Shown here: positions 1,028 to 63,487 of the stretch, piece by piece
Layout of the letters: every line of letters begins with the position of its first letter
Numbering within the stretch: position 1 is the first letter of the stretch
Assembly (NCBI GenBank): GCA_964016885.1
Contig: OZ024741.1
Span: 407,526,001 to 407,590,000, forward strand
Reading direction: 5' to 3'
Length of the DNA: 64,000 nucleotides
Source: Eledone cirrhosa
Lineage: Eukaryota
Program-made: the position numbers and the translations under genes
The notes under the pieces: generated by a model
Told to the model about the DNA's origin: nothing
The model's database searches: none
The model's input: the letters and a program-made list of their open reading frames with translations, nothing else

Positions 1028-1370
1028 TGAAAGGTTAACAAGGACGGTTGGTTACTTCTTCATTACATTTATTGGTGGGTGACGCGCGTTTCGCCACTAA
1101 TCAGCTCAAGGTTCAATCTGTATCGATCTTACCCGACTCAATAATCGGCAGCTCGACTTAAAGTGTTCGTCGAGCTGCCGATTATTGAGTCGGGTAAGAT
1201 CGATACAGATCGAACCTTGAGCTGATAAATGTAATGAAGGAGTAACCAACTGTCCTGGTTATCCTTTCAATATATTACACTCTGTATAGCTCTACACCTC
1301 AACACAGAAGTGAACCTAAACATCGAGTGCTCACCCGGGTGAACCTGCAGTAACTCCAAGTTACACTCCC
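1028..1370 (+). mobile_element. Truncated PLE (inverted pLTR + direct pLTR + tail)
   Basis: 1028-1157 is inverted at 1169-1270, followed by an unpaired tail with GAGTGCTC (1325). The GAAACGCGCGTC hammerhead stem III signature lies on the minus strand of the left arm. (TA)n flanks. Confidence 0.7.
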
Positions 1371-1819
1371 TATATATATATATATGGATTGACATTCCTA
1401 CGATGACTGAAACCACCTTGAACGTCTTCTCTGCTCTTTACGTCTTACATCCACTACGATTTTTATTACTCTCTGAACTCACTTTCTGTACCCTTATATT
1501 CTTTTTCTCCCTTATCTCCCCTTATATTTAAACTTTTTCCTATGTTATTTATTCCCCCTACTTTCTATCTTACCCTTTACATACACACATTTTTTATTTA
1601 TAGATATTTATTTCTGTGTGTATGTATGTATTGTGTATATGTGTATATATGTATATATGTATGTCTATATGTGTATATAATTATATATATATGTGTGTGT
1701 GTGTGTTTATATGTGTGTGTGCGTATTTTTATTATCGTGGTGATGTAACTTTTTGTATATATGTGTGTGTATATATATATATATATATATATATATATAT
1801 ATATATATATATATATATA

Positions 1820-2059
1820 TAGGAACCAGTAAGACCCCGACAGCTGAGCTCAAGCCGTTTCGACGGCTAATTCTGGACTCAATTAGGTCCAGAATTCTGG
1901 CTAATTCTGGACTCAATATGGTCCAGAATTAGCCGTCGAAACGGCTTGAGCTCAGCTGTCGGGGTCTTACTGGTTCCTATTACCCACTCTACTACCTCAA
2001 GTATTGAGTACTTTGGTGCGTTATGGTCCACCTGGTTCCTTACCACATTTCCTTCGTTA
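1820..2059 (+). mobile_element. Truncated PLE, family M (same family as 61061-62855)
   Basis: Inverted arms aggaaccagtaagaccccgac.../...gtcggggtcttactggttcct and a tail near-identical to 62780-62855. A further fragment lies at 2104-2152. Confidence 0.8.
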
Positions 2060-2469
2060 TATATATATATATATATATATATATATATTTATATATATAT
2101 ATAATAGCCGTCGAAACGGGTTGAGCTCTGCCGTCGAGGTCATAAATTTTCCTATATATATATAGAGAGAGAGAGATCTGTATGGTTGTGTGTGTGTATG
2201 TATATATGTGTATGTATATGCATAATTACATACAGAGTGATTTAATGTTTATTTTCATTGATTATTTGCTCCAGGAACTTGTTGAGTGCTCTAAATCAGC
2301 TATAAACTTTTATACCTTTGTCTATTTAATTATTTATTTATTATTTGTCGTATTCCCAAGTATTTGTTTACCCCTTCCACCTTTTTATTTTTATATATAT
2401 ATAATATTTATGTATATATATATATATATATATATATATATATATATATATATATATATATATATATAT

Positions 2470-3434
2470 ATTGTTATACTTGGGGAGGGTCATATTTATG
2501 TAATATTGCCAGAATTAATAACAGAACACACTCACTGTTTGGTTGGTTTTCGCTTTTCGCCGTCTTTTATATCTGCGATCTAACTTAATCGGTCCTTAAT
2601 CGTAGCATAGGTGAAAGGATAGACCAACACTGGGGGGAACTAAAAGGACGAAAAAACGGGTCAGTACTATACGAACATGCTAGACAACAACATGACCGTA
2701 ACATAGACAACATAGAAATTAGAATAATATCTAAACATAGGAATGACCCAGCAGATAGGCAAATCAGAGAGGCCAGTGAAATAGAAATTAGAAGACCAAA
2801 GCTAAACAGAAAGAATGAGTGGAACAACAACAACACCCAAACAAACAACACTGACCTAAGAGAAGTATAAATAAGTAAATAAAATAAAATAAAATAAGAT
2901 AAATAAATACATACACAAGCACAATAACAACAAGCACATAAACACACACTAGTCACCCAGCAGACACAACACTATACACACTAGTCACACAGCAAACATA
3001 ACGCTATACACACACGCAAACGCATGCGCAAAGAAGACAAAATAAAATAAACAAACAAGCAAATAAATAAATAAATATATAGACAGACTGAATAAAAAAT
3101 GACGTAGACATACAACACAACAGGAGGAAAAAATATAACACCACTGACGATGTTGCAGATGTGCAACGAAAGATTTATGTAAATTATGTAAACTATATAT
3201 ATGTGTTTGTGTCTATATTGTATCTGTATTATTTTTGACCGTCGGTCAGTCAATGGCAACATTGAGGACCGATTAAGTTAGATCGCAGATATAAAAGACA
3301 GCGAGAAGCGAAAACCAACCAAACAGTGAGTGTGTTCTGTTATTAATTCTGGCAATATTACAAAAATATGACCCTCCCCAAGTATAACAATATTTGTTTC
3401 GACACACGATTTCATATAAAAAACCTCGCTAAAC
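2470..3434 (+). mobile_element. 5'-truncated PLE, family C, with GIY-YIG remnant
   Basis: 2470-2600 is inverted at ~3262-3390. 2601-2870 (+) translates RSIGERIDQH...SVLYEHARQQH...RQIREASEIEIRRPKLNRKNEW, the C-terminal half of a GIY-YIG endonuclease. The tail runs into (TA)n. Confidence 0.85.
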
Positions 3435-4061
3435 TATATATATATATATATATATATAAATATGTATATGCGTGTGTATATATGTGTGTGTATGTATATA
3501 TTTATATGTATGTATGTGTATGTGTCGTTATGTGGGTATTGCTTACCACGTGTGTTTGATTATTTATTTGTGTCATTTACTGTATCGTTGTCAACTTAAT
3601 AATAATTTTATTTTCTTAAGTCTTATTTTTATTTTTTTACTTGTATGTGACGGCCTATTGCATTATATGGTTGTTCATGGTATTTTAATTTTTTTCTTAT
3701 AATTAATTGTGTGTGTGGGTATGTAGGTGTGTATATATATCTATATGTGTGCGTATGTATGCGTGTATATATGTATATATGTATATATCGGCCCAGCACT
3801 ATGTGTCAATAATTGTCACAAGTTTAGTGTTTGTACCAGAGTTTTCAAGTCGCTGGCTGGACTAAACAGTCACACTCGTTCAGCGCATCGGTAGGGGTTC
3901 TCCTACAGGGATATAAAGTAGTGGCCGTACTCGAAAACGAGTTGGCAGCCACCACCATATATGTTTATGTATGGATATATATATATATATATATATATAT
4001 ATATATATATATATATATATATATATATATATATATATATATATATATATAATATAATATA

Positions 4062-61580: not shown

Positions 61581-62196
61581 AATGCAATGAAATATCTATG
61601 ATCGTCGGCAAATCACTGATGAGGGACTTATTTTATTACATGTTAACCATGTGCAACCAGCAGTATTCTTCTCCCCATTTTTTCACATATATTTACCTAT
61701 ACTGCGATTCTGTTTTTTTCTCTCTCTCTCTTACTGCTCCCTCGCTCTCTCTGTTTCTCCTACTTTCTTTCGCCCCCTCTGTCATGTCAGTTAACTCTTC
61801 CTCACACTTCCACTCACTCACTCACTGTTTCTCCTCTTCTCACTTCACCCCGTGCGCGACGAAATCATTTTCTCTCTCTCACATTTGAATTCGCTGCTGA
61901 AAGGTCTTTTTTCTAAGCGCTCATATATTCACCTAGCTTATGCTAACAGAATAACTATGAAGCTTGTCTCCTTCTTTCTACGGTTAGCTATCCTTGTTGT
62001 TATCTTGTCTCACTCGCTTTACGCGTTTTAATTGTCCTAATAACTTAATTTAGTTATTATTGCACCGACGTGAGGTATATGATTTTTAATGCAATGAAAT
62101 ATCTATGATCGTCGGCAAATCACTAATGAGGGACTTATTTTATTACATGTTATCCATGTGCAACCAGCAGTATTCTTCTCCCCATTTTTTCACATA
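61581..62196 (+). mobile_element. Family L element with ~110-bp direct terminal repeats (507-bp period)
   Basis: 61581-61689 is repeated at 62088-62196. No ORF, (TA)n flanks. Confidence 0.75.
62034..62134 (+). ncRNA. Candidate reversed-order hammerhead, second copy
   Basis: ggta-TA-tgattt ... GAAA-tatc ... aaatca-CTaATGA. The upstream repeat has CTGATGA at 61616. Confidence 0.6.
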
Positions 62197-62674
62197 TATA
62201 TATATATATATATATATATAATGAAGAATAAAAAAACAAATAATAATAATAAAAATAAACTATTTGTTTATTTATTTTTTTATTTATTTATTTGTTTATT
62301 TATTTGTTTATTTATTTGTTTATTTATTTATTTATGTATTTCTTTAGCTTAGCAATAGCGAGAGACTTAAGTCTTAGTAACCAGACTTTGTTATTTTTTT
62401 TTTCTCTCTCAGTACTTTTTATAGTTTTACCCTTCATTGTTCTACCTACCGTTTCGACTTCTCCCCCCCCCCCTCCCCAGTATCCTCTTTTACCTCACGC
62501 CCAGTTGTAGCCGGCACTACCAACGCATGAATGGGTCTACTCCACCCCATCTCCCTTTTTCTCCTACCGGCAGGTTTAGCTACCCCTTCCCCCACCAATT
62601 TGCCATCACAGATTTACTACTAACTTGTGATGTGACCAATCCTGGTGATTATCTCTTTGACCATATATGGAATC

Positions 62675-62768
62675 ACCCCTTGATAAGCTCGGCTATTTAA
62701 ATACCAGAATAAATTTTCATTCAGTCCAGAATTAGCCGTCGAAACGGCTTGAGCTCAGCCGTCGGGGT
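62675..62768 (+). ncRNA. Type I hammerhead with U3-A8 core (mirror copy at 61073-61166 on minus)
   Basis: acccc-TTGATAA-g..cggcta/tagccg.c-GAAA-cggct/agccg-TC-ggggt. Confidence 0.8.
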
Positions 62769-63300
62769 CTTACTTGTTCCTATTACCCACTCTACTACCC
62801 TAAGTACTTTGGTGCGTTATGGTCCACCTGGCTCCTTACCACATTTCCTTCGTTATATATATATATATATTATGTATATGAGTTTATATATATATATATA
62901 TATATATATATATATATATATATATATATATATATTATGTATATGAGTTTATATATATATATATATATATATATATATTGGTTTTATATATAAATTATTT
63001 TTTTAAGCAGAGAGTACCTGGTTTAGGATTGCAGAAACCCCATATTGGATTTTACCACCGTTTCCGGTGGTCCGGGTATAATTTTCAATCATACTTTATT
63101 ATTTGTTTGACCCGAATAGCTTGTTCGCTTATATGGTTGTGCGGATAATGGTTTAACCATCGTCTCAGTATGTTTGGCCTTTTAACGTATGTTGTAGCTC
63201 TAGTTCACTAGTTTCTATGGATCGCTTGCCACACATCTCGGAAGTTGTTTTTCTCTAATTTCCAATAGCCGAAATGCGATTCTCGCTAATTTATATATAT

Positions 63301-63487
63301 TTATTAAAATAACAGATTAAAGTTTAAGCAAAGAATCTCTGCTTTCACCCTTAAGGAGATCTTCTAAAACTCAGGTGAAAGCAGCGATTCTATAAATATT
63401 TGCTCTACGGTTCTTATATATCTGATATATATTTAACCATATCGAGCCCTCTTTGGATTTTAGTGTTCAAATTTATTATTATTACTA
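63301..63487 (+). mobile_element. PLE family B short copy
   Basis: 63301-63371 matches 14838-14908 and ~63394-63487 matches 14749-14840 inverted. Confidence 0.8.

Follow-up and report, generated by a model that had tools for sequence, protein, structure and literature searches.

Structured RNAs that are read by a system's own reverse transcriptase (RT) to choose its template and set where copying begins include the 3' stem-loops of stringent long and short interspersed elements (LINEs and SINEs) and the template flanks of telomerase RNA, and the telomerase boundary element stops copying. For Penelope-like elements (PLEs), template choice and the origin of the one-sided tail have been open for two decades, and the one in vitro study located the binding element but left it undefined. 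Here we describe a bulged hairpin that occurs in two copies in PLEs assigned to the Hydra clade and marks both of their ends. The window analysed is a stretch of 64,000 nt from Eledone cirrhosa (assembly GCA_964016885.1, contig OZ024741.1, positions 407,526,001 to 407,590,000 of the forward strand), and coordinates are positions within it.

The closest described relatives are the Hydra-clade PLEs of Craig et al. 2021 (PMC8557442). They share with the elements studied here an RT with a C-terminal GIY-YIG endonuclease, the motifs DKT and RWK/RWR, a CxCX5C linker and (TA)n targets, and likewise a hammerhead, an inverted truncated partner and a tail on one side only. The main text of that paper uses neither 'hairpin' nor 'stem-loop' and credits the tail to the endonuclease; its tails are 30–40 nt long, while those here measure ~60–110 nt. 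For the anole Poseidon element PAc, the available part of Frangieh et al. 2024 (PMC11167929) reports cutting of both strands, reverse transcription from a pair of internal sites coinciding with the genomic ends, and a need of the RT for RNA ~55 nt 3' of the start. Two starts bracketing the tail, cutting of both strands and a required RNA element 3' of the start are the points of likeness to our elements. PAc differs in that its binding motif is undefined in that part of the paper, and in that its starts lie in an AC-rich stem-loop inside the open reading frame (ORF), without homology to the target. A description of the hairpin was not found in the available parts of the PLE literature searched (PMC8557442, PMC3846280, PMC4209133, PMC13282606, PMC5737381), nor in those of bioRxiv 10.64898/2026.07.22.740005.

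Rfam gave no match on the window hairpins at E<=1, nor in 10 full elements at E<=0.05; what Rfam did match in the window were microsatellite artefacts and the tRNA-like heads of two SINEs. A known ribozyme, SECIS or other Rfam family was rejected, there being no covariance-model match. A Helitron end, a splice signal and an HDV, twister or pistol ribozyme were rejected as well, the context being a PLE end and core matches being absent.

A bulged hairpin in PLE tails

The first-pass annotation of the window listed 16 sites at which a GAGT or GAGC heptamer closes a short stem in a PLE tail. All 16 carry the heptamer, each with a matching 5' arm upstream: ACTC at the 11 GAGT sites and GCTC at the 5 GAGC sites, across loops of 11–42 nt. 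A (TA)n or (CA)n run begins 35–69 nt after 15 of these hairpins; the exception is the one at 7758, where another insertion comes next. We then turned to 900 kb from elsewhere in the genome, taken as 90 stretches of 10 kb, 50 of which had already been inspected before the descriptor was refined. Where GAGTNCY lies 25–90 nt ahead of (TA)5+, ACTC is found upstream in 31 of 50 cases and GCTC in 2; for GAGCNCY so placed, GCTC is upstream in 13 of 24 and ACTC in 2. Away from (TA)n the cognate arm accompanies the heptamer in 31/352 (GAGT) and 28/250 (GAGC) cases, a background of ~10%. For a strict structural descriptor the enrichment before (TA)n is 110-fold with ACTC/GAGT and 39-fold with GCTC/GAGC, counted as element copies and not as independent families. 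The descriptor's 18 matches in the window comprise the 16 listed sites and those at 2284 and 35224; every one lies in an element tail, none outside tails, and BLAST sorts them into 11 clusters. The motif is not due to chance, and the possibility that it is no commoner in tails than in background is at odds with this large enrichment.

The refined element reads N-C-U-C-Y..R-U-N-G-A-G-N': a four-pair stem, a two-base bulge beginning with U, and a variable inner stem. The four-pair stem of the first-pass annotation is confirmed but was incomplete, as it left out the bulge and the covarying inner stem. The trailing RCT is not invariant in the genome, where CAC, CTC, TAT, TAC and TTA are found too. 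Beyond this genome the hairpin was found in 47 sequence clusters from marine metagenomes, to which 94 instances, picked by sequence alone, were collapsed. A U stands two positions before GAG in 47/47 clusters. The first inner pair forms with a 2-nt bulge in 46 of the 47, compared with 1, 1, 5 and 20 for bulges of 0, 1, 3 and 4 nt. This pair is C-G in 28 clusters and U-A in 17, Watson-Crick in 45/47 versus 23 when shuffled; the second and third inner pairs are Watson-Crick in 31/45 and 25/36, with shuffled values of 15 and 11. The strongest covariation sits in the inner stem. When positions are freed singly in the metagenome regions, the bulge U is retained in 91/91 hairpins, the preceding pair is Y-R in 91/91, and G, A and G are kept in 92/92, 91/95 and 92/92.

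The same co-change appears on a protein tree (FastTree, 55 proteins), on which the assignment of a hairpin to the tail copy (hairpin 1) or the second copy (hairpin 2) is doubtful for L239, L260 and L268. In hairpin 1 the first inner pair, which is the one below the bulge, switches between C-G and U-A about ten times with both sides together: 9 changes fall on one side, 10 on the other and 10 on the pair as a whole. All 6 independent tree contrasts for the first inner pair agree (p = 0.03); the next two inner pairs point in the same direction, above p 0.05. Covariation thus persists in the larger alignments, where its failure had been the other outcome considered. In the outer stem, 45/47 clusters have G-C as pair 1 and the 2 with U-A are related to each other, while A-U is found in many families of this genome; pair 2 is C-G, or U-A in three families here, one of them with at least 40 copies. 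The compensatory switch between A-U and G-C noted in the first-pass annotation is real in that both states occur, but among the four outer pairs this one is constrained least.

The training set of a covariance model consisted solely of 41 metagenome hairpins, taken from 41 of the 47 clusters with loops of 8–20 nt and with two poor ones dropped, a choice that makes the model and alignment results lean towards structure. The model ranked 12 window tails first and recovered 17 of the 18 at E<=10; 13 other window matches were also returned, three of which are further hairpin variants. The proteins of the carriers are ~40% identical and the hairpin flanks are not alignable, while the hairpin core is near-invariant. 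This contrast and the co-change of inner pairs on the tree speak against a functionless relic or chance feature from a common ancestor. We consider such a relic very improbable, even though every carrier is homologous and the folding energies are weak.

Two hairpin copies, two fixed ends and their proposed role

Hairpin 1 lies in the tail, whereas hairpin 2 is never within a (TA)n-joined end and yet marks the long one. In family F1 the ends fall at −2 relative to hairpin 1 in 46/79 cases and at +86 in 23/79, with hairpin 2 at +89. The corresponding figures for family F2 are −3 (28/55), +74 (24/55) and +76. The long end lies 2–5 nt before hairpin 2 and the short end 0–6 nt before hairpin 1. Five more window families, each with at least 12 mapped ends, have their short end at −5 to +1, and that of the GTTC/GAAC family is at −4. 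Hairpin 2 behind the long end, sought after the F1 result, was found in F2, in L105 (7143 type) and in the GTTC/GAAC family; in the last two the long end and hairpin 2 are within 3–5 nt of each other, and the GTTC/GAAC copy has an open pair 1. Head-to-head insertions combine one short and one long end in 103/106 cases, and in 51/52 within four families not fetched by their tail. Among 30 metagenome loci with both copies, 11 are cut off by the end of their contig and 1 continues through; of the 18 informative loci, 13 stop 0–6 nt before a hairpin. The single 3'-terminal element proposed at first is replaced by two copies per element, each downstream of the end that it marks, so that the tail copy is the mark of the short end rather than of the end beside it. 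Since hairpin 2 is outside every (TA)n-joined end and still marks the long end, it acts on a template that reaches beyond the end.

The two bulged hairpins are likely docking sites that set the RT-endonuclease at two RT starts, which would explain the one-sided tail. A transcript would read through from one tandem copy to the next, and one protein molecule would occupy each hairpin. Both nicked strands of the (TA)n target would be extended, each from the U/A-rich patch immediately 5' of a hairpin. The short end would result from priming at hairpin 1 and the tailed end from priming at hairpin 2, which would copy hairpin 1; the products would join head to head. With two starts at two hairpins, the tail length would equal the hairpin spacing (55–83 nt in metagenome elements). 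What the anole PLE does in vitro is compatible with this scheme. By analogy, the hairpin would belong to the RT-binding stem-loops of retroelements, unusual in being paired and 3' of the start; in LINEs the stem-loop is single, sits 5' of the start and gets copied. Of the conserved cis RNA element suggested in the first-pass annotation, a covarying, PLE-borne structure at a position compatible with RT binding or initiation stands, whereas unrelated hosts and a single copy do not. A structure of 25–40 nt at a fixed offset from both ends makes the question of template choice directly testable. PLE RTs are sister to telomerase, and an RNA grip beside the template bears on telomerase origins; a defined start signal is also relevant to the use of such enzymes for gene insertion.

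The ends could instead be cut sites at the A/T patch, if the hairpins, in single-stranded or cruciform DNA, guided GIY-YIG cutting of a tandem or palindromic intermediate. Craig et al. 2021 (main text, PMC8557442) explain the tail by an intermediate that the endonuclease resolves. In the available part of PMC11167929, recognition by the D. virilis endonuclease needed the tail and the anole enzyme cuts its own A/T-rich pseudo-long terminal repeat (pLTR). In our elements the 14 nt preceding the arm are 79–83% A+T, compared with ~60% past the motif. A programmed pair of cuts would also account for one short and one long end, and the wobble counts do not decide between RNA and DNA. However, covariation across loops of 6 to ~70 nt rules out a double-stranded site, and the outer stem of some elements contains G.T pairs, counted there independently of A.C. 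Moreover, hairpin 2 of F1 closes a C-UUCG-G loop, which is a loop stable in RNA. In the sole PLE tested, the genomic ends coincide with RT starts in RNA (available part of PMC11167929). We regard guided DNA cutting as an improbable origin of the ends.

Hairpin 2 lies ~20–35 nt ahead of the start codon in F1, F2 and L105, and the F1 5' junctions cluster in it (7/20 within 24/500 nt, p = 3e-5, post hoc). This position, and the resemblance of the bulge to TAR and 7SK, would suit hairpins that mainly regulate expression in a TAR-like way, recruiting a protein for elongation or translational feedback, with the ends following where the RT stalls or starts near the bound protein. The F1 junctions are expected from a transcription start or a protein block alike. 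Left unexplained are the fixed offset of 0–6 nt at both hairpins and the one-of-each rule. The TAR apical loop is the part read by the elongation complex, and no such apical loop exists here, where a variable loop caps the other helix instead. As the main function, regulation seems to us somewhat less probable still than guided cutting; an expression role could be additional to the RT-start role.

A sandwich triple typically requires a spacer base. In TAR, G26 pairs with C39. The sandwich base of TAR is A22, the triple is made by U23 with A27-U38, and G26 and G28 are bonded by arginines; the 7SK bulge shares this secondary structure (available part of PMC6189040). The hairpin resembles both in having a paired purine, a bulge of U plus a spacer base, and then G, A and G paired to C, U and C (available parts of PMC6189040 and bioRxiv 10.1101/2022.12.05.519207). 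The A-U pair two steps past the bulge is at the position of the triple partner. The second bulge base is U, C or A, the 2-nt register is best, and U-A occupies the triple position in 91/95 hairpins; the second flanking G is absent in the GAAC variants. Unlike in TAR, the loop closes the opposite helix and spans 6 to ~70 nt, a single-stranded N-C-U trailer follows, and there is no Tat-like protein. As a TAR element the hairpin was rejected, since its loop closes the other helix and varies. The bulge matches the arginine-sandwich pattern in sequence and pairing, and we offer a sandwich tentatively as a candidate and a lead, with no homology implied. More speculatively, it would fold as a TAR/7SK-type U.A-U triple and be read by a protein arginine, for which R-x-R-x-R ahead of WFNPP and the N-terminal R-x-R-W-K are candidates. 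Of 106 proteins, 96% have the arginine R481 and 98% have R483, and positions 35 and 37 are further arginine-specific ones. In its fullest and rather doubtful form, paired TAR-like arginine-sandwich bulges on one RNA would load two RT molecules that prime both strands of a (TA)n break simultaneously, with the tail equal to the inter-bulge distance and with the hairpin pair as a portable two-site start signal attachable to other RNAs. A TAR-like bulge in a retrotransposon would, if true, be an independent use of that motif. The pair below the bulge is C-G in 35/37 cases in hairpin 2, and 26 C-G versus 24 U-A in hairpin 1 (metagenome loci L197–L289). The two sites may differ in affinity, since in 7SK an A-U versus a G-C at this place decides whether the sandwich is preformed.

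Several observations weigh against RT docking at RNA hairpins or against its details. In two families of this genome pair 1 of hairpin 2 is open, and the three central outer pairs hardly vary in the metagenome alignment and give no support for pairing. Folding energy is weak (z below −2 in 3/18 window copies), the lowest-energy fold of these copies often displaces or abolishes the bulge, and RNAalifold recovers only 3 pairs. G.U and A.C mismatches number 12 vs 6 in the metagenome clusters and 4 vs 6 here, which leaves RNA versus DNA unsettled. The 0–6 nt rule is broken by 5/18 informative metagenome loci. Of the hairpins scored for a sandwich, 4/95 lack the A required for the triple; the published copepod 5' copy has G-A as its bulge (by eye); and conserved arginines are common in RTs and so are uninformative on the hairpin. 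The anole initiation RNA is not homologous to the cut DNA, unlike the assumed U/A patch (available part of PMC11167929). The Neptune-type family of the window lacks the hairpin despite discrete ends and a tail, so tails do not require it in all PLEs.

Carriers and range of the hairpin

F1 and F2 each have a single ORF with an RT as well as a GIY-YIG endonuclease at the C-terminus, in frames of 713 and 719 aa (endonuclease motifs by eye), to which Pfam gave no match. The best fold matches of the predicted F1 structure are telomerase RTs (E 2e-9). DKG is changed to DKT in the window frame and in F2, and RWK is found in F2 and RWR in F1, both features being conserved in 106 relatives. The linker carries CxCX5C, without CCHH, and CxxC and CxH are found near the end (by eye). 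The insertion target of both is (TA)n. By the marks of Craig et al. (DKT, RWK/RWR, CxCX5C, no CCHH) we assign F1 and F2 to the Hydra clade on their sequence features. The two proteins are 44% identical, and there are many near-intact copies of each family. Their 3' untranslated regions (UTRs), both >1 kb, terminate in the hairpins at 14790 (F1) and 9027 (F2). Hairpin 2 of F1 is minimal (L002, reverse complement 1341–1360, 5' UTR), one inner C-G pair closing a UUCG loop, and that of F2 has a loop of 67 nt.

The hammerhead core is canonical in F2, and that of F1 is a variant with A at the second position. The F1 hammerhead-like fold was viewed at 14870–14905 on the minus strand and in L002, L007, L008 and L009, where CAGAAGA replaces CUGANGA. 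Self-cleavage in F1 may be dispensable, as the variant core is in a young family with intact frames; copies of the young family are 96–98% identical in protein and encode a soluble-looking enzyme of ~710 aa. A hammerhead upstream of the hairpins, as initially described, holds in part: a canonical core lies within 230 nt upstream in only 5/23 window hairpins, and a relaxed core in 4 more.

ACTC/GAGT tails are joined to Hydra-type frames in the 7143 type (window 5061–5288, L318 and L105, the last with a broken frame) and in the 19086 type (L072). Seven other clusters of window hairpins could not be linked to a protein; the unlinked tails are those at 1325, 2006, 4364, 7758, 14657, 30100/58690 and 34092 and those of the GTTC/GAAC families. 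The families described at first as unrelated are all Hydra-clade PLEs where their protein is known. Among families tied to a protein, the carriers group as one clade, and the shared hairpin is read as homology. The GTTC/GAAC family at 60150–60460 (also L352, L356, L359, L360, L361 and L364) is high-copy and shows no long frame past hairpin 2 in tandems; it may be non-autonomous or long-leadered. The Neptune-type family (2600–3435 and 13850–14540) has three discrete ends, one short, one long and a third 13 nt further.

An alignment of 42 protein sequences retrieved 78 metagenome loci and 15 from metagenome-assembled genomes. In these 93 loci, sense versus antisense hairpin matches number 58 vs 3 in 5' regions (20 kb), 32 vs 4 in 3' regions (40 kb) and 19 vs 6 in the matched spans (169 kb), some of which probably cross tandem junctions. 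The hairpin is usually present in two copies, 55–83 nt apart, between the hammerhead and the start codon (27 metagenome loci). Among six published Hydra consensi inspected by eye, three hold the full hairpin, two a variant, and Hydra-1_Obim none; Hydra-1_Ajap holds two copies, and coral and sea-cucumber consensi are among the carriers. A search of the supplement of Craig et al. with six 9-mers, in which line breaks may conceal further matches, gave 7 matches, 4 in Hydra hairpins and 3 inside Naiad/Chlamys away from the ends. The hairpin is not a universal PLE tail signal but belongs to the Hydra clade, and its descriptor marks the boundaries of Hydra elements, which are otherwise hard to annotate. 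No relative was found in viral contigs. Fifteen contigs binned as bacterial genomes (L275–L289) bear Hydra-type PLEs, most likely as host animal DNA.

Features of the window

Table 1. Hairpins, variant hairpins and associated PLE features in the 64,000-nt window
Feature	Position	Strand	Remarks
Hairpin 1, ACTC/GAGT, bulge TC	1279..1331	+	tailed end; inverted short-end partner ends near 1026
Hairpin 1, ACTC/GAGT, bulge TT	1986..2012	+	inverted partner ends near 1820, 5 nt ahead of arm
Hairpin 1, GCTC/GAGT, G.U at pair 1	2268..2290	+	not in the first list
Hairpin 1, ACTC/GAGT, bulge TC	4343..4370	+	inverted short-end partner ends near 4053
Hairpin 1, GCTC/GAGC, bulge TA	4821..4844	+	
Decayed Hydra-type endonuclease C-terminus	5061..5288	+	E 2e-11; within insertion 4914–7212, whose tail bears the 7143 hairpin
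Hairpin 1, ACTC/GAGT, bulge TT	7127..7149	+	inverted short-end partner ends at 4914
Hairpin 1, ACTC/GAGT, trailer ACC	7752..7773	-	65 nt past hammerhead core at 7838; partner ends near 7910
Hairpin 1, GCTC/GAGC	7988..8011	-	downstream of hammerhead core at 8102
Hairpin 1, GCTC/GAGC, family F2	9021..9044	-	downstream of hammerhead core at 9144
F2 GIY-YIG endonuclease, C-terminal 171 aa	10378..10893	-	full copies elsewhere: 719-aa frame
Hairpin 1, ACTC/GAGT, bulge TA	12108..12131	+	
Hairpin 1, ACTC/GAGT, bulge TC	14634..14663	+	sole one of 18 missed by the covariance model
Hairpin 1, GCTC/GAGC, trailer CCT, family F1	14784..14831	-	35 nt ahead of long end
F1 RT + GIY-YIG frame, 672 aa, 5'-truncated	15837..17855	-	3' UTR extends to about 14748; 713-aa frame in full copies
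Hairpin 1, ACTC/GAGT, bulge TA	19065..19092	+	related tail after Hydra-type endonuclease in L072
Hairpin 1, ACTC/GAGT, bulge TT	30094..30124	-	
Hairpin 1, ACTC/GAGT, bulge TC	34056..34098	+	107 nt past hammerhead core at 33949
Hairpin 1, family F1	35218..35268	-	not in the first list
Hairpin 1, ACTC/GAGT, bulge TG	58684..58712	-	inverted partner ends at 58939, 5 nt ahead of arm
Hairpin 1, GCTC/GAGC, trailer CCT, family F1	63402..63450	+	
Variant hairpin 1, GTTC/GAAC, pair 2 altered on both sides	60358..60384	+	past hammerhead core at 60222; at least 40 copies in the family
Variant hairpin, GTTC/GAAC, second family	856..894	+	
Variant hairpin, GCTC/GAGC, trailer TAT	46366..46402	+	
Variant hairpin, GCTC/GAGC, trailer CTC	11342..11380	-	
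Variant hairpin, GCTC/GAGC, trailer CAC	34..72	-	partial covariance-model match
Control: Neptune-type PLE end, tail without hairpin	2600..3435	+	hammerhead at 3144; clade from protein motifs by eye

The window holds several other repeats. A fold-back family at 59248–59801 and 61570–62221 has (TA)n ends and core-like CTAATGA/CTGATGA, and neither the hairpin nor a canonical hammerhead was seen in it. An RTE-like LINE on the plus strand (20001–23680) encodes an endonuclease, an RT and C2H2 zinc fingers (Pfam), and a further endonuclease frame lies at 49385–50533. SINE-like repeats headed by a tRNA are found at 18820, 19786–19980, 26946–27120, 33600–33730, 36770–37270 and 51640–51797. A long G/T-rich low-complexity array spans 39700–44000. 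At 52879–57379 lies an array of 51-bp tandem repeats, ~4.5 kb long, whose minus strand contains open frames.

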